A DNA stretch of 64,000 bases, from positions 96,001 to 160,000 of IMG/VR virus record IMGVR_UViG_3300031993_000012; one strand, 5' to 3'. Shown here piece after piece: positions 2,257 through 57,864 of this stretch; position 1 is the stretch's first letter; each line of letters starts with the position of its first letter. Source of the stretch: a virus (lineage: Duplodnaviria; Caudoviricetes). A program made the position numbers and the translations under genes. The notes under the pieces are model-generated. The model saw only the letters and a list, made by a program, of their open reading frames with translations, had not been told where the DNA came from and ran no database searches.

Positions 2257-2260
2257 TTCT

Positions 2261-2279
2261 GCCGGGGTATATCCCCGGC
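2261..2279. terminator. GC-rich hairpin GCCGGGG-TATAT-CCCCGGC
   Basis: perfect inverted repeat right after a stop codon; member of a recurrent hairpin family. Confidence 0.65.
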
Positions 2280-2290
2280 GATTATTCTTA

Positions 2291-2310
2291 AATTCTACAT
2301 ATATATCATT
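2291..2310 (+). promoter_or_regulatory. putative early phage promoter (AATTCTACATATATATCATT)
   Basis: same motif precedes about 10 plus-strand units. Confidence 0.6.
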
Positions 2311-2315
2311 CTATT

Positions 2316-2518
2316 GAAGCAACTCAGGAATATTTTACGGAGGTGATTCCATGGAAGATATTATCATTATCAACGATAGTACGACTCCCCAGTCAGAAAT
2401 CGAAAATAATATCAAAGTATGGTTAGGATAAAACCATACAATGATTAATGAAAAAACTTCACAATTCATTGAGTAATTGTTCATACGTTATAAACCCATT
2501 CCAACCTGAGAATGCTTC
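2316..2518 (+). ncRNA. fold-back RNA cassette copy 1 enclosing a mini-ORF
   Basis: 5' arm GAAGCA-A-CTCAGG pairs with 3' arm CCTGAG-AA-TGCTTC; core 2450-2501 is 50/52 identical to 19474-19524. Confidence 0.65.
2351..2431 (+). CDS. 26-aa peptide MEDIIIINDSTTPQSEIENNIKVWLG
   Basis: GGAGGTGA RBS; 19/26 identical to peptide at 19378-19458 with many synonymous codon changes. Confidence 0.75.
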   Translation: MEDIIIINDSTTPQSEIENNIKVWLG

Positions 2519-2578
2519 TAATTAAATGTGTGTAGATAACGAAATAAAAATATCACTCGAAAGGAGGTTAAACAACGA

Positions 2579-2938
2579 GTGAAAGTGATTATGAAAGATC
2601 CATCATATAAGAAAGTGGATCCAAACACACGTCGTTGTATTGATTTAGGTATCAAAAAATTACAACAGAGAATCGACAGTTACCTAGTTCAAGAACGACA
2701 AATCAATCAGGTTTTCAATGATGATACATTAATTCATGATATCATTTGTGGTTTCTATGTATACAAGTGCAGAGCCAATAATAATCAGCTCCGTTTGTTA
2801 TATACAATGAATAATAACAAACTGATTATTATATCACACTTCATCAAGAAAACCGATGAGGCTGGACATAATCAAGCATACATTCCTCACTTTAAGAAAG
2901 TATGCGAAACGTTAAACCAGAAAGGAATAAGATCATGA
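2579..2938 (+). CDS. RelE/HigB (Gp49-like) toxin-fold protein
   Basis: LRLLYTMNNNKLIIISHFIKKT resembles the R-I-L-Y...H-x-F-x-K-K-T signature; AAAGGAGG RBS, GTG start. Confidence 0.6.
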   Translation: MKVIMKDPSYKKVDPNTRRCIDLGIKKLQQRIDSYLVQERQINQVFNDDTLIHDIICGFYVYKCRANNNQLRLLYTMNNNKLIIISHFIKKTDEAGHNQAYIPHFKKVCETLNQKGIRS

Positions 2939-15820: not shown

Positions 15821-15840
15821 ATTCGATATTTATATTATTT
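15821..15840 (+). promoter_or_regulatory. putative early promoter ATTCGATATTTATATTATT
   Basis: same 19-mer near 48343 and 51920. Confidence 0.65.
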
Positions 15841-15898
15841 AGGTGGACAAATGAAAACACATTTGTTACACACTAATATTGAAAGGAAAGAAGTTAAA

Positions 15899-18109: not shown

Positions 18110-18122
18110 GCTATTTTTTGAC

Positions 18123-18185
18123 ATTCTACATATATTATTCTTATGGATAGATACGAAAGTATTTATTACATTATAAACGAAAGGA
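18123..18185 (+). promoter_or_regulatory. early promoter plus GNRA-hairpin leader, duplicated at 54516-54580
   Basis: TATATTATTCTTATGG then ATAGATAC-GAAA-GTATTTAT then TACATTATAA and GAAAGGA. Confidence 0.65.
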
Positions 18186-19299: not shown

Positions 19300-19319
19300 T
19301 GCCCCCGTAATCGGGGGCA
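19300..19319. terminator. GC hairpin TGCCCCCG-TAAT-CGGGGGCA
   Basis: perfect inverted repeat after operon end. Confidence 0.65.
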
Positions 19320-19335
19320 TACACATATTAACACC

Positions 19336-19541
19336 ATATGAAAGATAGACAAATATTTTTTGAAAGGAAGTGTTTCCATGGAAGAAATCATTATAATTAA
19401 TGATTCTACTACTTCGCCAGAAGAGTTAGAAGATAACATCCGTGTGTGGTTAGGTTAACCAATGAACGGATACGAAAAAACTTCACAATTCATTGAGAAT
19501 TGGTCATACGTTATAAACCCATTCATGTCTATCTTTCATAT
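19336..19541 (+). ncRNA. fold-back RNA cassette copy 2 enclosing a mini-ORF
   Basis: perfect 16-bp terminal IR ATATGAAAGATAGACA/TGTCTATCTTTCATAT; core shared with copy 1. Confidence 0.7.
19378..19458 (+). CDS. 26-aa peptide MEEIIIINDSTTSPEELEDNIRVWLG
   Basis: GAAAGGAAG RBS; paralog of 2351-2431. Confidence 0.75.
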   Translation: MEEIIIINDSTTSPEELEDNIRVWLG

Positions 19542-19568
19542 ATAAATGAGTTGTGCTTTTTCGTATTA

Positions 19569-25084: not shown

Positions 25085-25104
25085 AATTCCATATATATAT
25101 TATT
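25085..25104 (+). promoter_or_regulatory. putative early promoter
   Basis: AATTCCATATATATATTATT followed by a short hairpin. Confidence 0.6.
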
Positions 25105-25184
25105 AATATGAAGAAAGAGTAAAATATATTACTCTGGATTCACTCAAATATCAATCTATTTTCCATTATGAAAGGATGGTCATT

Positions 25185-25418
25185 ATGACAAGAAAAACAT
25201 TAGCTATGAACGGACTTATAGGCATCCGCACAGAGAACGGTGGGGTTCTCACAGGCACAAACGCTATGACGAAGGCTAGCGCTAAGGCACAGCGCACCTT
25301 CACTGGCTCGACAGTTACAGCCATCCGCGAGGACGGCTCAACATTTCAGACGACAAAGGCTCGTCTCCAGAAGGAAGCTGCTAAGCAGACCATTAAGAAC
25401 TTCATCGACAGATTCTAA
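25185..25418 (+). CDS. small basic protein, monocistronic
   Basis: GAAAGGA RBS; own promoter and terminator; codon bias suggests high expression. Confidence 0.75.
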   Translation: MTRKTLAMNGLIGIRTENGGVLTGTNAMTKASAKAQRTFTGSTVTAIREDGSTFQTTKARLQKEAAKQTIKNFIDRF

Positions 25419-35753: not shown

Positions 35754-37790
35754 ATGAATAAATTTGAACAATATTTGATCGATAATAGTATCGAAACAAT
35801 TGGCACACCACCACCGGATTTACGTAAAGAATTTCCGGAAGGTGCAGTATTATTCGATGTGCGTTATCGTAAACGTCCAAACGAATCATTCGAAGTGGTT
35901 TACTTAGACCCAGAAACAAAACGTTTGGAAGTTAAATATATTGCACCAATCGTCGATATATGGTTCACACGTGAAGATTATCGATATACATTAGATGGAT
36001 TCTGTGTTGATCAATATTTCCGTAATAAAATGCGTGAACAACATAAACCTGATGATGCATATCAAATGCCACAAATCAAAATCAAACATGCATATCGTGT
36101 ATTCTGTAAAGTTTCACAAATTCCGAAAATGATATATGAACATGCTGGAAATGCGAAAATGTATTCTGAAGATGGTTCACATCTGATTGATATGACATAT
36201 AAGGAATATTATGAACAGAATTGCGATGCACTTTATCATCCTGATTTCCAGAAACGTATGTGTCAGAATCCATGGTCATATAAATGTGATTTCCAACCAG
36301 ATGCATATTTCCGCATTCGTTGGTTACATGAATTCACAGATACTTGCGATGTGTCCAAGGTAACCGCGGGATTTATCGATATTGAGATCGATGTTATTGA
36401 TTATCAACCGGATCTTGGTAATCCGTATGATGTTCGTACGAATGTAAATACGGTTACATCAATATATCCACATGATAAAATCGTATATGTTGATTTGTTG
36501 GAACCGCGTAAAAAGTTAAATGGTAAAACACCGGAAGAACAAAAACATTTCGATGAATTATGTAAACAACAACAAATCGAATATGATTGGATTAAATCGC
36601 ATCAAGAAGAATTCATTCAAATGATTTTGGGTAATCCATCCAATAATAATTGTCCGGTTCATATTGATGCAGATGATGATAATCTGAAATATCTGGAAGG
36701 TTATGATGTCAAATTATTATTCTGGGAATCAGATAATAGAATATCATTTGGTGGTGCGGAAGCACGTTTAATCAATTCCGTATATGAACATGCAAACAAA
36801 CATCGACCAATGTTCGTATTCGCATGGAATGCACCATTCGATTTTAATTATCTTCCGAATCGTGCACAATGGTTGGGTTATGATCCAATTGATATCGTGG
36901 TTCCGCAAATATTCAAATCAAAAGAATATCGTTTCAGTAAAGATAACTCGGATAATTTCAGTATGAAAACAAACCGAGATTGGTTCTATGCATCAACATA
37001 TTCTCAATACTTATGTCAGGAACGTTTGTATGCAGCCATCAGAAAATCACAATCTGAAGAACCATCGTATCGTTTAAATGCAATTGGTAAAAAGGTTGCA
37101 AAGATTGAAAAGTTAACCGATACTAAGAGTGGTATATTCCGTGAGTTTGCATACACTGATTATATCAAATTCATATTATATAATATCCGTGACGTTGTTG
37201 TACAAGTTGCAATTGAAACCAAAGTAAACGATGCACAAACATTGTATTCACGTGCATATACATTCTCAACGGCGTATTCAAAATGTTTCCAAGAAACTCA
37301 CATTGTGCGTAATTCCAAAGACCAATTGTTTGAAGAATTCGGATATGTAATGTCGAATCGTGCGGTAATTGATCGTACAATTGATGGTGCATTCAAAGGA
37401 GCATATGTTGCAGATCCAGCAAAGAACAAACCAACTGGATTGGTTGCATCTGGACGTGCTTATAGTAGTATTATATATGGTGCGTCGGATTTGGATGCTG
37501 CAGCAATGTACCCGAATCAAAAGATGGCATATAATAAAGACAAATTGTCGTTGTTGTATAAATGTCGAATTGATAATGATTTATTCCGTAATAAATATTG
37601 TCACAATAATTCATATAATCAAGAATACATCTGGAAAGATTCTAAAGGAAATGAACATGAAGAGGATATGGCTGGACCAATCATGAATTCATTCAAGAAT
37701 CACAATTATATGTCATTGACATCCAATTGGTTTGGTGTACCGGTTATAACCGATATAATCCAATCGGTACGTAAAGAGTTAGTAATTTAA
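35754..37790 (+). CDS. family B DNA polymerase, N-terminal part (3'-5' exonuclease and motif A)
   Basis: DIEID (ExoI), WNAPFD (ExoII), YNIRD (ExoIII), GAYV..P, DLDAAAMYPN; motifs B and C absent. Confidence 0.85.
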   Translation: MNKFEQYLIDNSIETIGTPPPDLRKEFPEGAVLFDVRYRKRPNESFEVVYLDPETKRLEVKYIAPIVDIWFTREDYRYTLDGFCVDQYFRNKMREQHKPDDAYQMPQIKIKHAYRVFCKVSQIPKMIYEHAGNAKMYSEDGSHLIDMTYKEYYEQNCDALYHPDFQKRMCQNPWSYKCDFQPDAYFRIRWLHEFTDTCDVSKVTAGFIDIEIDVIDYQPDLGNPYDVRTNVNTVTSIYPHDKIVYVDLLEPRKKLNGKTPEEQKHFDELCKQQQIEYDWIKSHQEEFIQMILGNPSNNNCPVHIDADDDNLKYLEGYDVKLLFWESDNRISFGGAEARLINSVYEHANKHRPMFVFAWNAPFDFNYLPNRAQWLGYDPIDIVVPQIFKSKEYRFSKDNSDNFSMKTNRDWFYASTYSQYLCQERLYAAIRKSQSEEPSYRLNAIGKKVAKIEKLTDTKSGIFREFAYTDYIKFILYNIRDVVVQVAIETKVNDAQTLYSRAYTFSTAYSKCFQETHIVRNSKDQLFEEFGYVMSNRAVIDRTIDGAFKGAYVADPAKNKPTGLVASGRAYSSIIYGASDLDAAAMYPNQKMAYNKDKLSLLYKCRIDNDLFRNKYCHNNSYNQEYIWKDSKGNEHEEDMAGPIMNSFKNHNYMSLTSNWFGVPVITDIIQSVRKELVI

Positions 37791-46318: not shown

Positions 46319-48274
46319 TTATATTTTTACAATTTCTTCGAGTGGTGTTTCACGCGTTTTCCGATTATTCAAAGTTGAACATAATCCTTTCTTAACAGAA
46401 TTGGATATGTCTTGGAATAATAATCCTGATAAAAAGTTTGATGTTTGTACAAGTGAACGGAAATTATCTTTTTTGTACGATAATGGATCTACTTGGGGAT
46501 TTTTACCGTATATCTTTGCGAATGTATCGTTGTCTTCCGTACGGCATGTACGACGTGTCAACATCTCATATATAATAGATGGTGAACTCAAATCAATGTT
46601 ATTCATTGATAAACATGTGAACATCATCTGTACTATGAGCGGATATGGTATTTGTGCAATCTTAGAATACAGGAATATTTGATTGATAAAGTATTCTACA
46701 TTTACAACATTCTGACGAATTGACAAACGCGTTATTGCAGAATTCGGTTCGTATGTAATTATGATATTATCAGGATCTTCTTGTGGCTCAGCATACAAAT
46801 TAAACGACATTAATGCAGGAATTGTCAATAATGTAGATGCTGTTGGTTTATCACTCTTATCATAGAATTGTACGGGTACAATGCCGAGACATGCAATGTA
46901 CGTAGTTTCACGTTCGAATCCTACGAGATCGACGTCATCACCCTCTGATTCATCTTTGATACGTGGAATGAATATTCTCATTTTTTCTTTATTGAATAAA
47001 TATCCATCTTTGATAAATAACTTATCAGCCTGAGATAGTACTGTTTGTTCAACTTTCATTGTACCTGCAGATTGTGCAAGATTATGTTTTGATTTCAGTT
47101 TAAGGTTAAGAATTTTATCGGTGAATTGCGTACATAATAAACCAACATGTGTTATATTTCCAAGATTATAAAATAATGGTCCTGCACATTTCGCACATAT
47201 ACGATCGTGTGTACAACAAACCGGTGAACACAATCTGACCGTTTTACCCATATAAGAATTAATGTTCTTTGGTGTAAGAGTTACTATTTTTGAACCTTCC
47301 ATTATATTACGATTATAAACATATTTCGCTGTAGATTTATCAATCAATAATGGGATCGTGGCTTTGGTTCCACAATCTGATTTTGGATTCGGGTCTAATT
47401 CTTCTGACTGGAGCAATGCCATCATTTGTTTTGACATATATCCAGCATCAGCAGTACCAACTGCAGAAGGATATGCACCAGCAACAACTGAATTGGCAAA
47501 TGCAGGAATATCCTTTCGATCAATGCCATCCATCATTGAAGATTCAACAACATCATATTTTTGCGTAATATCATTGAATACTGCACCACGCATAACATTG
47601 ATTGTTTTGTAATTATTGTCCAAATTATAAACACCGGAATTGAATAAATCATTTGATTCACCAGCGTTTTTCAAATTTGTTTTAACCATTCCAATTAATT
47701 CTTTTTCAATTGAATTGGTTGCAAGAATCTGTTTAACCGGGTCATTTGAATTGACATCATTTGAAAGTTGTTTAAATAATTCCACTTTACGTTTATTTAC
47801 GTTTTCCATTGGCATCAATAATGATGATGAAACCGCAGTTCCGATATAACAACAAATCCATGCTGCTAAATGATCACGGGTATCAATAACATTTGCTTGG
47901 TCTTCAGTTGTAATCTGATCTGCAATAACTAATTGCGCCAGCATGGTTTCAAATGATTCCATTCCTTTATTGCTTAATGGAATATTCCAATATTTTGTTA
48001 CTTGGATTATATGTGTTTTCTCCAATACAACTCGATTGAATAACAACATTCCAAGTGATGTTTCTGTTGGTCCAACAACATACGGATACTCTTCCGGTGT
48101 TAACATTATATGTGCATTACAATCAAAATTCGCATGTTTAAAAGTACCAGTTTCACGATCATGATATGATGCAAACATGTCTTCGATAAATGCTTTGTTG
48201 ATTTGTTCAATTGGGGTTGAAAGAAGTTTTTGTTTACCCAATTTAGTATTCTGGGCATCAGCCATTAGTATCAT
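46319..48274 (-). CDS. phage RNA polymerase beta' subunit, C-terminal fragment
   Basis: bridge-helix-like GTADAGY, DCGT, SPVCC...ICAKCAG zinc site, trigger-loop-like LNLKLKSKH. Confidence 0.85.
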   Translation of the reverse strand: MILMADAQNTKLGKQKLLSTPIEQINKAFIEDMFASYHDRETGTFKHANFDCNAHIMLTPEEYPYVVGPTETSLGMLLFNRVVLEKTHIIQVTKYWNIPLSNKGMESFETMLAQLVIADQITTEDQANVIDTRDHLAAWICCYIGTAVSSSLLMPMENVNKRKVELFKQLSNDVNSNDPVKQILATNSIEKELIGMVKTNLKNAGESNDLFNSGVYNLDNNYKTINVMRGAVFNDITQKYDVVESSMMDGIDRKDIPAFANSVVAGAYPSAVGTADAGYMSKQMMALLQSEELDPNPKSDCGTKATIPLLIDKSTAKYVYNRNIMEGSKIVTLTPKNINSYMGKTVRLCSPVCCTHDRICAKCAGPLFYNLGNITHVGLLCTQFTDKILNLKLKSKHNLAQSAGTMKVEQTVLSQADKLFIKDGYLFNKEKMRIFIPRIKDESEGDDVDLVGFERETTYIACLGIVPVQFYDKSDKPTASTLLTIPALMSFNLYAEPQEDPDNIIITYEPNSAITRLSIRQNVVNVEYFINQIFLYSKIAQIPYPLIVQMMFTCLSMNNIDLSSPSIIYEMLTRRTCRTEDNDTFAKIYGKNPQVDPLSYKKDNFRSLVQTSNFLSGLLFQDISNSVKKGLCSTLNNRKTRETPLEEIVKI

Positions 48275-48308: not shown

Positions 48309-48366
48309 GATGGTGGGATTACCCACCATCTATAATTTTTGAATTCGATATTTATATTATTTAAAT

Positions 48367-48580
48367 GGAAGAGAACAAAGAAATATTTATCGAAAGGAGC
48401 TGTTTCTCATGGGTGAAATTGTGATATTCCCCGTACCTTCGGGTGAGAGTATCATTTGCGAATAATACAAATGATAATATGAACAGTGGTTGATCCCCAC
48501 GATAAAGAATCGATCGTTCAACGTAATCGCAGTTACGTTGTTCCATTCGCCATAAACCATCGACATCTTTGAACTCTTCC
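48367..48580 (+). ncRNA. fold-back RNA cassette copy 3 (divergent)
   Basis: GGAAGAG-AA-CAAAGA / TCTTTG-AA-CTCTTCC arms; AAATATTT, RBS, mini-ORF, ATAAACCAT near 3' arm. Confidence 0.55.
48409..48465 (+). CDS. 18-aa peptide MGEIVIFPVPSGESIICE
   Basis: GAAAGGAG RBS; same position in the cassette as the other two peptides. Confidence 0.5.
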   Translation: MGEIVIFPVPSGESIICE

Positions 48581-48611: not shown

Positions 48612-49817
48612 ATGGATTACAACAAACTTATTTTACCACTGATGATGATTTTGCGTAAAGCAAAACCTGATGAATCAGTAATTAATTCGTTGATAAAAAG
48701 TCGCGTATGGTATACTGTAGACATCAGCACTATTTATCACAGTATAACCCCTGTGTTTTCGGCGATATCTGATAAAGGTAGTAAATCAATGTATATAGAT
48801 GAAAGCGGTGAAGTATATACACAGTTTCGAACACCATTCGGCGCATCATCAGTCGATCTAATATGGTACAAGAAAGTGCCGCTCTTAATTTTGAAACGAC
48901 ACTTCAAAGATACCCATGCGTCAAATTATGAAATTATGACGCTCAACAATAAGTATTGTCGAGAGATGGTAATCGAATTTGTTAAAAAATGTGTCGCTGC
49001 ACAAAACAAATTTGCAGTAAACACATTCGCCGGTCAAATTGATATTGTCGATTACACCGGACGTAATGGTGAATATTTACATTGCGACAAAAAATCATTT
49101 GATGATGTCTTTCTGCCTGATGAACAACAGAATGCTATCATTAATGGTGTGAACGATTTCATCAATAAAATACCGTGGATGGAAGAAAATCATATTCCGA
49201 CCCATTACGGAATATTATTGTATGGAACACCCGGATGTGGTCGTACATCAATTATTAAAGCCATTATTAATAAATGGAATATTCGTCCACATTACATTCA
49301 GCAATTAGAGTGTTTGCCGCAATTGGTAATGTCACAGTTACCCACACGGAAAACACCAACAAATGAACTCCATATGGTTATATGTGAGGATATTGATTGC
49401 ACACTGTTTAATCGTCAGAAAGGTTTCAAAGAAACTAAATACGATGAAGAGTATGACGAATTTGAATGCAACGGAGCATTCTTTAATCCGAATCTGCGTA
49501 GGGGTAAAACATCTTTGTCACAGGTATTAAATGCAATTGATGGAATGGTGGCACCACATAATACATTATTTGTGTTTACGACCAATCACATCGAAGAATT
49601 AGATCCAGCTCTGATTAGACCGGGTAGAATGGATTTGCATTTGGAGATAAAACCAATATGCAAAGAAACGTTAAATAAATTCTGTCTTAAATTCTTTGGT
49701 AAATCAATACCGGAAGATTTTAAATGTAAAGAAGGAGTGTTATTCTCCACATTGCAAACGATCATAATGGGTAATGGTACCTATGATGATATATTAAACT
49801 ATATGAAAGAGGAGTAA
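48612..49817 (+). CDS. BCS1-like AAA+ ATPase
   Basis: GILLYGTPGCGRT, EDID, LNAIDG, TTNH, LDPALIRPGRMD. Confidence 0.85.
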   Translation: MDYNKLILPLMMILRKAKPDESVINSLIKSRVWYTVDISTIYHSITPVFSAISDKGSKSMYIDESGEVYTQFRTPFGASSVDLIWYKKVPLLILKRHFKDTHASNYEIMTLNNKYCREMVIEFVKKCVAAQNKFAVNTFAGQIDIVDYTGRNGEYLHCDKKSFDDVFLPDEQQNAIINGVNDFINKIPWMEENHIPTHYGILLYGTPGCGRTSIIKAIINKWNIRPHYIQQLECLPQLVMSQLPTRKTPTNELHMVICEDIDCTLFNRQKGFKETKYDEEYDEFECNGAFFNPNLRRGKTSLSQVLNAIDGMVAPHNTLFVFTTNHIEELDPALIRPGRMDLHLEIKPICKETLNKFCLKFFGKSIPEDFKCKEGVLFSTLQTIIMGNGTYDDILNYMKEE

Positions 49818-56779: not shown

Positions 56780-57864
56780 TATTTTCTTATTTTAAGTTTG
56801 TATGCAGTACCAACATCTTTGATACTGACTCTCCAATGTTTATATACAGGAAATACATACTTTCGTTGGAGATTATATCCATTTGAGTGATATGCGAATC
56901 CTCTCAATGAACCAATGCAACACCGACGATGCAATGTCATCATTTTTCCGTTATAGGCAATACATTTAATCTTTAAATTATTTTTTATTCTCTTCCGTAA
57001 TAATACACGATCTGGAAACAAATTATATCCAACAAAATCTAATCCTTCTTCCAATGTCCTAATCAGATAATTCGGTTTAACAACCAATCCTTCATCTAGT
57101 AGTATACTGATAACAAGATCAGCTAATAATCTCAACTCCCCAGTATTGTCTCCAAACAATACCATGTCATCCATATATCTGTAATAATGTTTGATGCGAT
57201 ATCGTTCTTTCATCAGATGATCGAATTCTGTCAAATACAGATTACCACTGAATTGTGATAGATAGTTACCAATGGGAACTCCTTCGTTAGGTTCAACTGA
57301 ATCTATGACGTTAAATATCAATCCAAGTAAATCAGGATCTTTGAATAATTTATAATATTTCTCCTTCAATCGTTCATGGTCAATTGATGGATAGAATTTA
57401 CGAATATCCATTTTAAGATAATACCTCATGTCGGGTAATCCACGTTTGTAATAGTAGTATGTAGCAGCATGGATACGTTTCATACATGCAAGCGGACCTT
57501 TTCCTTTGATAGAAGAATATGTATCATATATGAAGTGACGTTCCATAATAGGACCAATGATTTGTAGGATTGCCCATTGTACTATTCGATCTGGATAGTA
57601 CGGGAGCTTGTATATCTTCCGGAGTTTCTCACCTTCCTCACGTTCAAATACGTCGTATTGAGATGTCTGGAATGTGCGATTGAGTAATGATTCTTGGATT
57701 TGTTTCAGATAATAGTCTGGATTGGAATTAACCATCTTGACTTCCTTATAGAATGCTTTTCCACGAGATGCATTATAATGTGCAAGTCGTAAATTATCCA
57801 TATCACAAATAGCATCAAAAAGTGTCACCCCGGGATCACCCGGGTAGTAACGATATCTAATCAT
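56779..57864 (-). CDS. DGR reverse transcriptase
   Basis: YPDRIVQWA, KMDIRKFYPSI, GVPIGNYLSQ (DGR-type SQ), YRYMDD, DFVGY; adjacent TR. Confidence 0.95.
   Translation of the reverse strand: MIRYRYYPGDPGVTLFDAICDMDNLRLAHYNASRGKAFYKEVKMVNSNPDYYLKQIQESLLNRTFQTSQYDVFEREEGEKLRKIYKLPYYPDRIVQWAILQIIGPIMERHFIYDTYSSIKGKGPLACMKRIHAATYYYYKRGLPDMRYYLKMDIRKFYPSIDHERLKEKYYKLFKDPDLLGLIFNVIDSVEPNEGVPIGNYLSQFSGNLYLTEFDHLMKERYRIKHYYRYMDDMVLFGDNTGELRLLADLVISILLDEGLVVKPNYLIRTLEEGLDFVGYNLFPDRVLLRKRIKNNLKIKCIAYNGKMMTLHRRCCIGSLRGFAYHSNGYNLQRKYVFPVYKHWRVSIKDVGTAYKLKIRK

Follow-up and report, generated by a model that had tools for sequence, protein, structure and literature searches.

What kind of element is formed by two intergenic regions of about 200 nucleotides (nt) that lie at positions 2316-2518 (copy 1) and 19336-19541 (copy 2) of a phage genome and look like variants of one design? 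The 64-kilobase (kb) window in which they lie is the whole stretch of DNA that was analysed, and it belongs to an IMG/VR phage record of 182 kb with a completeness of 68%. A sequence-only reading had described both regions as fold-back cassettes with a common architecture, i. e. a Shine-Dalgarno (SD) sequence, an open reading frame (ORF) of 26 codons, a hairpin at the stop codon and two pairing arms, and had taken them for a dual-function system of RNA and peptide. Both copies, with all of these parts, were found in the window sequence. Copies 1 and 2 belong to a larger family, undescribed as far as the searched libraries show, which is variably present at predicted transcript starts in a group of giant cattle-gut phages. 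The account that fits best, and which we hold with middling confidence, is that the cassette would be a self-contained, end-clamped micro-gene of about 200 nt with a selected peptide product.

Evidence for a selected peptide

The peptides of copies 1 and 2 are identical at 19 of 26 residues, and their ORFs at 56 of 81 nucleotides. Fifteen of the nucleotide differences fall on the third codon position, 6 and 4 on positions 1 and 2; counted by codons, there are 11 synonymous and 7 non-synonymous changes (dN = 0.22, dS saturated). Copy 1 and its orthologue at locus L018 are separated by six synonymous codon changes and no non-synonymous one. Pairs from a second branch of the family, in which the peptide has 17 amino acids (17-aa branch), show 3-9 synonymous against 1-2 non-synonymous codon changes per pair, with 9 against 1 in the strongest pair. 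The SD and the start codon are retained in every family member. This synonymous excess, together with the SD and start codon that are always kept, indicates that the mini-ORF is a real coding sequence. Protein-level selection had already been proposed from the two copies; the codon counts for L018 and the 17-aa branch bear this out and extend it.

Some cassettes stand alone. Copy 2 is followed in the window by no gene in the same orientation, a cassette called B2 in the distant relative G003 also lacks a downstream gene, and the peptide is retained in both. The counterpart of B2 in a 250-kb phage has no downstream gene in the sequence read, and it has kept the peptide and nearly the same arms. 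Purifying selection and the conservation of these stand-alone copies argue that the peptide is the selected product of the cassette.

The peptides are acidic, with a net charge of -3 to -6, and each consists of two short Ile-rich hydrophobic segments flanking a polar stretch. Since they are acidic and their longest hydrophobic run is just 4-5 residues, they should be unable to span a membrane. The predicted tryptic peptide of the mini-ORF product is MEDIIIINDSTTPQSEIENNIK.

The closing stem and the two hairpins

Thirteen cassettes were folded independently, and all 13 close by pairing of their 5' and 3' arms (stem P1). The arms are mostly perfect Watson-Crick repeats of 13-25 base pairs (bp). 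For copies 1 and 2 the folds of the whole cassette are closed by the arms, with z = -3.0 and -5.6, respectively, against dinucleotide shuffles. The stop codon lies unpaired in the loop of a hairpin (H2) in 11 of the 13 cassettes; in the remaining two it is found at the top of the hairpin stem (copy 2) or unpaired just 5' of the hairpin (cassette B1 of G003).

Whole-family MAFFT alignments lose the register of the arms and, in the 26-aa branch, also that of H2 and of a further hairpin (H3) in the 52-nt core that follows the ORF. Pair counts were therefore made on six copies of the 17-aa branch only. In these, 97.5% of the cells of P1, the leader hairpin and the stop hairpin are paired, against 26-48% with slid partners. 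Eight pairs have changed on both sides, 6 of 10 P1 pairs covary, and the covariation score is 0.38 against 0.16 for shuffles, a value that none of 500 shuffles matched. Elsewhere the sequence of P1 differs at each 26-aa site (13, 16 and 15 bp) and at copy 3, a diverged member described below (12 of 14 paired). The stop hairpin of the 26-aa branch changes from GTATGGTT/AACCATAC to TTTGGTT/AACCAAA in L018, which is a compensatory exchange of A-T to T-A, and to ATTTGG/CCAAAT; unrelated stems stand at its position in copy 3 and in the 17-aa branch. Around the H3 loop CATTGAG the stem changes from ACAATT/AATTGT to CGGAT/ATCCG in the relative G001. A tail motif with the consensus A-Y-AAAC is found near the 3' arm in both peptide types.

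The compensatory changes support the closing stem and the two hairpins, in agreement with the structure-level selection claimed earlier, and G-U pairs in H2 favour RNA over DNA. The hairpin that was said to enclose the ribosome-binding site (RBS) is a different case: it is predicted in copies 1 and 2, but it is not kept in the orthologues of copy 1 (L018-L021) or in G001.

Family members beyond the two copies

The 182-kb record contains only copies 1 and 2 of this sequence type. The family itself is larger and has a third, diverged copy in the window (copy 3, Table 1), which is followed by an RBS and a gene for 401 amino acids at 48612. A peptide-pattern scan of JGI metagenomes gave four orthologous loci of copy 1 (L018-L021), which have the promoter, the arms and the peptide in common with it. 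G001, whose proteins are 59-71% identical to those of the window's phage, carries one 26-aa cassette at a different site; its arms of 15 bp are perfect (GGAATACACAAACGA / TCGTTTGTGTATTCC) and its peptide is MDEIIIINDSTMSQSDVEENIRIWLD. The ORF of copy 2 is nearer the G001 copy (63/83) than copy 1 (59/82).

At least five cassettes are present in G003 (258 kb) and at least four in the 250-kb phage. They encode the 17-aa form, MGEIYIPDTTGSIIICE and variants of it, and one copy of this branch begins with MEEI, as does the 26-aa form. Two 17-aa cassettes stand in tandem in G003, with 21 nt between them, a terminator after the second and no downstream gene (L053 1230-1639, which equals G003 contig 47397-47806). 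A shortened member of the same phage (L059, about 2350-2540) has a 13-codon ORF, MGEIITGEEIFLG, with the same leader hairpin and tail, but lacks H3 and a stop hairpin of its own. Two copies of the 250-kb phage, which share their arms, are placed behind a separate 5' hairpin; thus P1 can also travel with the cassette. DNA of the window's phage was found in a bovine gut metagenome, possibly its source. Contigs from four other sequencing runs, three of them labelled bovine gut, match the window at 85-99% identity.

The statement that no known family is involved held in the searches made here. Rfam gave no match at gathering score in the 64-kb window, and scans by E-value, run on copies 1 and 2 as well as on six related loci, found nothing on the cassettes. 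Cultured phages (INPHARED, blastn and tblastn) showed no match to the cassette, and exact-word scans for the core found none in IMG/VR or the JGI metagenomes; a single 17-mer match to the core lay in a GC-rich contig and was dismissed as chance. A first peptide-pattern scan of IMG/VR was empty, its patterns being too narrow, and later, wider scans found copies. The proteins neighbouring the cassettes belong to no Pfam or PHROG family.

Promoter class and leader context

The sequence-only reading missed two things: a promoter-like motif directly ahead of the 5' arm, and the presence or absence of cassettes between related phages. The motif occurs in about 20 copies in the 182-kb record, nearly all of them after terminators and before genes, and it also precedes the L018-L021 orthologues and the G001 copy. 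A hairpin of variable sequence follows within a few nt in at least 14 of the 19 best matches, and the ordinary leader has the order motif, hairpin, A/T-rich spacer, RBS of the GAAAGGA type and ATG. Since the same order is found behind most copies of the motif, the series of 5' arm, AATATTTT spacer and RBS is, by this comparison, the standard leader of the phage promoter class. The 5' arm begins 5 nt past the motif in copy 1 and 4-7 nt past it in 7 of 13 copies. What is unusual in the cassettes is the distance, about 190 nt, between the 5' arm and its partner. Strong long-range 5'-3' pairing is found only at cassette promoters (copy 1, arm-arm RNAduplex energy -18.1 kcal/mol, z = -2.7; copy 3, z = -5.0; G001, z = -6.3).

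A related arrangement was seen at about 178540-178835 of the G003 contig on the minus strand (L046), where a closing stem of 15 bp (GTATACAGAGAATC / GATTCTCTGTATAC) behind the same kind of promoter encloses an unrelated ORF of 33 codons, MKITNQMPSILTMLAEIAKPCTTMVLKAIAIDQ. Hence the clamp architecture may carry other cargo.

Two further leaders were noted. A conserved one, with a AATATGAAGAAAGA...TCTTCA hairpin and further conserved segments, stands at six promoter copies before unrelated genes (window 25086-25200; G000 contig 8793(-), 17373, 59845, 60560 and 168880). The gene for 115 amino acids after copy 1 has its RBS in the loop of a hairpin CACTCG...CGAGTG (window 2553-2580).

Gain and loss at four sites

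Four pairs of filled and empty sites were found between related phages, the empty state being a plain hairpin or no insert. At site 1 the promoter of G001 is accompanied by a plain hairpin (GAACAACC, 20-nt loop, GGTTGTTAC), and the gene downstream is the same as the one after the L018 cassette; contigs of runs X3-X5 also span this site. Site 2 is empty in the relative L005, where a hairpin with a run of T is followed directly by the convergent gene. Metagenome contigs with the empty allele join 19341 to 19564 with 21 other letters between (run X2) and 19341 to 19550 with GCTG between (run X5); the GCTG of the empty alleles is absent from the filled one. Site 3 is represented in G001 by the promoter with a small hairpin. 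Empty-site hairpins have stems homologous to the outer arms at site 1 and, in the case of site 3, to those of copy 3, and the 3' arm at sites 2 and 3 is partly without counterpart in the empty alleles. Site 4 is the window's plain-hairpin counterpart of the G001 cassette (Table 1), and the genes downstream are orthologous between the window and G001 (42% identity, E = 2e-52). From these plain-hairpin or empty alleles we infer that cassettes occupy the positions of hairpin loops and come and go.

A contig of run X4 joins window position 18119 to 2290, at the promoter copies located at 18123 and 2292. This could be due to recombination between promoter repeats in a related strain or to an assembly artefact at the repeat.

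An insert with a layout like that of the cassettes, i. e. placed in a hairpin loop and with an extended stem, was seen at G000 contig 35964-36570, about 59 kb before the start of the window. There ARAGORN calls a tRNA-Lys(ttt) whose anticodon loop contains an insert of 530 nt; a perfect inverted repeat of 12 bp (CGCTTTAAAGGA / TCCTTTAAAGCG) clamps this insert, which has an RBS and an ORF at its start. Two tRNAs beside it were also called with short inserts.

The 52-nt core

The cores of copies 1 and 2 are identical at 50 of 52 positions, the differences being one substitution and one indel of 1 nt, and each half of the core has exactly two occurrences in the window, where chance would give 0.00-0.01. 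From this near-identity it had been concluded that the core is more conserved than the ORF. This fails across orthologues, where the core is the less conserved part and indels break any frame: between copy 1 and L018-L021 the ORF is 93-96% identical and the part after the ORF, which holds the core, 73-81%, with small compensating indels. By its ORF, linker and arms copy 1 belongs with L018-L021, by its 52-nt core with copy 2, and it carries the marker TCATACG, common to copy 2 and G001. Given this mosaic, the best explanation of the 50/52 identity is gene conversion over a tract of about 52 nt, through which sequence of the copy 2 type was probably transferred into copy 1. This calls for caution: here, near-identity of non-coding sequence between paralogues came, on this explanation, from gene conversion and not from functional constraint.

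Three other candidates for the core were rejected. A second ORF is open only in copy 2 (in frame, 27 codons, ATG at 19462) and is ruled out by an insertion of 1 nt in copy 1, by the missing ATG and a double stop in G001 and by the indels in the orthologues; since the frame is broken in all of these, read-through of the stop codon into the core is not credible. Ribosome hopping as in T4 gene 60 would require a matching landing codon with an open frame after it, and none was found. As a sigma-70 promoter the core has a hexamer spacing of 12-15 nt, which is variable, and it gave zero scan matches.

Coordinates and neighbouring features

Table 1. Features of the three cassettes in the window, with associated sites
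Feature	Position	Strand	Basis or detail
Terminator-like GC-rich hairpin	2260-2280	+	closes upstream gene 1762-2256; terminator scan and sequence
Promoter-like phage motif ahead of copy 1, ATTCTACATATATATCATT	2292-2310	+	class consensus ATTCYAYATATATATTATT
Copy 1, 5' arm of P1, GAAGCAACTCAGG	2316-2328	+	pairs with 2505-2518 in minimum-free-energy and centroid folds
Copy 1, SD GGAGG	2339-2343	+	7 nt upstream of ATG; sequence
Copy 1, mini-ORF, 26 codons and TAA, peptide MEDIIIINDSTTPQSEIENNIKVWLG	2351-2431	+	purifying selection
Copy 1, stop-codon hairpin H2, GTATGGTT / AACCATAC	2417-2439	+	loop AGGATAA contains TAA
Copy 1, core	2450-2501	+	H3 (ACAATT-CATTGAGT-AATTGT, 2461-2480) and tail motif TATAAACCCATTC
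Copy 1, 3' arm of P1, CCTGAGAATGCTTC	2505-2518	+	fold and duplex evidence
Site 4, window counterpart of the G001 cassette	15821-15870	+	promoter and plain 5' hairpin GGACAAATG-aaaaca-CATTTGTTAC
GC-rich hairpin closing the operon upstream of copy 2	19300-19319	+	no T-run in the window; L005 version with T-run
Copy 2, 5' arm of P1, ATATGAAAGATAGACA	19336-19351	+	perfect 16-bp inverted repeat with 19526-19541
Stretch absent from related strains at site 2	19342-19563	+	empty-site alleles in metagenome contigs
Copy 2, mini-ORF, peptide MEEIIIINDSTTSPEELEDNIRVWLG	19378-19458	+	codon comparison
Copy 2, stop hairpin TGGTTA-GGT-TAACCA	19447-19461	+	stop codon at top of stem
Copy 2, core	19474-19524	+	H3 (CAATT-CATTGAG-AATTG, 19486-19502) and tail TATAAACCCATTC
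Copy 2, 3' arm of P1, TGTCTATCTTTCATAT	19526-19541	+	inverted-repeat partner
Promoter-like motif ahead of copy 3	48343-48361	+	one of the promoter copies of the record
Copy 3, diverged, 17/18-aa branch	48367-48580	+	RNAduplex z = -5.0; peptide akin to those of G003 and the 250-kb phage
Copy 3, arms, GGAAGAGAACAAAG / CTTTGAACTCTTCC	48367-48380 / 48567-48580	+	12 of 14 paired
Copy 3, ORF, 18 codons, MGEIVIFPVPSGESIICE	48409-48465	+	
Copy 3, stop hairpin, ATCATTTG / CAAATGAT	48451-48475	+	stop codon in loop
Copy 3, motif CATAAACC ahead of 3' arm		+	

A reverse transcriptase is encoded on the minus strand of the window at 57025-57630 (Pfam RVT_1, E = 1e-16); no link between it and the cassettes was found.

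Proposed explanation and its alternatives

On this reading of a self-contained micro-gene, the cassette consists of a strong SD and an ORF of 17-26 codons for a small, acidic, Ile-rich peptide, together with three features that are kept family-wide: P1, which pairs the first and the last nucleotides, H2, which holds the stop codon, and H3 with a CA-rich tail after it. Transcription would start at about the first base of the 5' arm, a -10-like TATTAT ending 6 nt upstream, and in most copies P1 stands in for the 5'-terminal hairpin that is usual for transcripts of this promoter class. P1 would thereby clamp both ends of the mini-messenger and may shield the 5' end from end-dependent ribonucleases (RNases). 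A double-strand-specific RNase could then cut the 13-25 bp of P1 and free a stable mRNA of about 200 nt from the downstream message. Related phages gain and lose cassettes at differing hairpins in leaders and between genes, and copies within one genome swap sequence by gene conversion. A more far-reaching version, in which a mobile micro-gene in its own RNA clamp colonises the loops of promoter-proximal and other hairpins, inserts there with no disturbance of the host transcript thanks to the clamp, is released as a stable mini-mRNA and encodes an acidic, beta-hairpin-like peptide that serves as a dosage-dependent effector of host takeover or counter-defence, is possible, but we regard it as rather doubtful.

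Several points weigh against a self-contained micro-gene. The cassettes are known here from sequence alone, the start of the transcript is placed solely by promoter spacing, and the processing of P1 by an RNase is pure inference. No intact promoter motif is found in the sequence upstream of the 5' arm of copy 2, which would need read-through of a hairpin that has no T-run. P1 is nearly all Watson-Crick with very few G-U pairs, and this would fit an origin or a role as a DNA palindrome as well. Finally, several near-identical peptide genes per genome, many of them in leaders, would also fit a leader peptide that acts in cis.

Such a cis-acting leader peptide, or ribosome-dependent regulator, is the main rival. 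Translation of the mini-ORF, or stalling on it, would remodel the leader and set the expression or stability of the downstream gene, much as ermC-type leaders and 5' stabilisers do. Most copies do lie in the 5' leader of a gene, with the promoter upstream and the RBS downstream of them, and unrelated genes have the same peptide ahead of them, which would be expected of a common regulatory signal. Conservation of the peptide sequence is known from arrest peptides too, and the last codons always form the 5' strand of H2, so that a terminating ribosome must melt this hairpin. The peptides are also Ile-rich, with IIII in the 26-aa type and III in the 17-aa type; yet Ile is abundant throughout this AT-rich genome, and the runs may be no more than beta-strand segments. 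The rival is weakened by the stand-alone copies (copy 2, B2 of G003 and, in the sequence read, the B2 counterpart in the 250-kb phage), which have kept the peptide with no same-orientation gene downstream. It is also weakened because nothing in the structure ties the cassette to the RBS of the downstream gene: from the 3' arm to this gene, neither a terminator/anti-terminator pair nor a cassette segment complementary to the RBS was seen. Moreover, P1 is not part of the ORF and would stay closed during translation. On balance we consider this explanation unlikely.

Another possible interpretation is that the cassette is a non-autonomous mobile DNA element, or a module shuffled passively among hairpin loops, whose arms stem from the target hairpin or from the process of insertion and which would persist chiefly through the tolerance of insertions in loops. 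The filled and empty states at four sites fit such an element, in particular the plain hairpins at sites 1, 3 and 4 and the homology of the outer arms to the empty-site stems at sites 1 and 3. So do the mostly perfect arms, the tandem copies, the copies with shared arms and the run X4 contig that joins two promoter copies. However, the copies lack conserved terminal repeats, and the sites show neither a clear target duplication nor a conserved target sequence; just the innermost 3-8 bp of the arms are common, and these only among some copies of the 17-aa branch. The parts of the 3' arm without counterpart at sites 2 and 3 speak against a simple cut-and-paste into the loop. No Y1 transposase (IS200/IS605 type) was found in the 68%-complete record, Y1_Tnp being the only family searched, and the strong purifying selection on the peptide means that the cargo is not junk. 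As an explanation in its place a mobile element seems quite unlikely; mobility is, however, compatible with an end-clamped micro-gene and not exclusive of it.

It is less probable still that a structured non-coding or dual-function RNA, with the H3 loop CAUUGAG and the CA-rich tail, acts in trans and that the ORF is secondary; we regard this as very unlikely. The retention of P1, H2 and H3 through compensatory changes and the tail motif that both peptide types have near the 3' arm could be read in this way. But the two peptide branches differ in the H3 loop and in the core sequence, the core evolves faster than the ORF across orthologues, its near-identity in copies 1 and 2 is attributed to gene conversion, and Rfam gave no match. 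The earlier proposal of a dual-function RNA is thus not supported, as nothing shows an action of the RNA apart from carrying the ORF.

A mRNA of the type I toxin-antitoxin kind, silenced by 5'-3' pairing until processing and controlled by an antisense RNA, would fit the long-range pairing (P1 forms in 13/13 folds and covaries), the small ORF and the RBS hairpin of copies 1 and 2, but it is highly improbable: as was already noted from the sequence, the acidic, non-membrane peptide does not suit such a toxin, the RBS hairpin is not conserved, no antisense promoter was found inside the cassettes in a scan limited to the sigma-70 consensus, and the genes are multi-copy and stand behind phage promoters.

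Comparison with known systems

In type I toxin mRNAs, such as those of hok/Sok of plasmid R1 and aapA1/IsoA1 of Helicobacter, a small ORF lies on an mRNA of about 200 nt whose ends pair. The cassettes resemble them in the 5'-3' pairing only; the cassette peptide is acidic, and occlusion of the RBS is not conserved.

The 5' stabilisers of Firmicutes (the ermC leader, the cryIIIA STAB-SD and the stabiliser of phage SP82) have a stem that begins within a few nt of the 5' end, and a strong SD or a short translated ORF near this end of a longer message. They are not known to need a particular peptide. The cassettes are unlike them in that their peptide is under strong purifying selection and that stand-alone copies exist. 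Leader-peptide attenuators, be they of the trp/ilv type or translational ones like ermC, also differ, as the cassettes showed no alternative hairpins by which their ORF would be linked to a terminator or to the RBS downstream.

Phage morons and very small phage peptides, for example T4 Stp with 26 amino acids, are accessory genes that lie between core genes, are variably present and have products of a few tens of residues. There is no sequence relation between them and the cassettes, and neither the nested, stem-clamped RNA nor the multi-copy state is known from them.

Gene callers do not see micropeptide genes of 17-26 codons. In uncultured cattle-gut phages of about 250 kb, which form a clade, a family of such genes shows clear purifying selection together with a compensated RNA architecture, in several copies per genome. 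The cassettes also show how such genes can travel, namely inside the stem that usually caps the 5' ends of phage transcripts, where they are swapped between relatives. If it is true that the clamp yields unusually stable or separately processed mini-messengers, this would be a new organisation of phage accessory genes, and the clamp could also be a useful design for the expression of small peptides.

The closest comparison is with the PeSL (promoter-early stem-loop) cassettes of T4-type phages (Arbiol et al. 2010, PMC2839356; Comeau et al. 2014, PMC4122927). As in these, a short repeated phage promoter and a stem-loop lie between small genes of unknown function, and related phages gain, lose and exchange small genes at the modules (PMC2839356, PMC4122927). 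In PeSL, however, the stem-loop serves as a terminator next to the promoter, and two PeSLs flank the cargo (PMC2839356, PMC4122927). The stem of the cassettes begins at about the predicted start of the transcript and goes around the micro-gene as a whole. Their terminator, rich in GC, is a separate element ahead of the promoter, and a single conserved family of peptides, in many copies, makes up the cargo. None of the compared systems is known to have a conserved, multi-copy micropeptide gene inside a 5'-terminal stem, and the cassette can be regarded as a variant form of the phage promoter/stem-loop mini-gene module.

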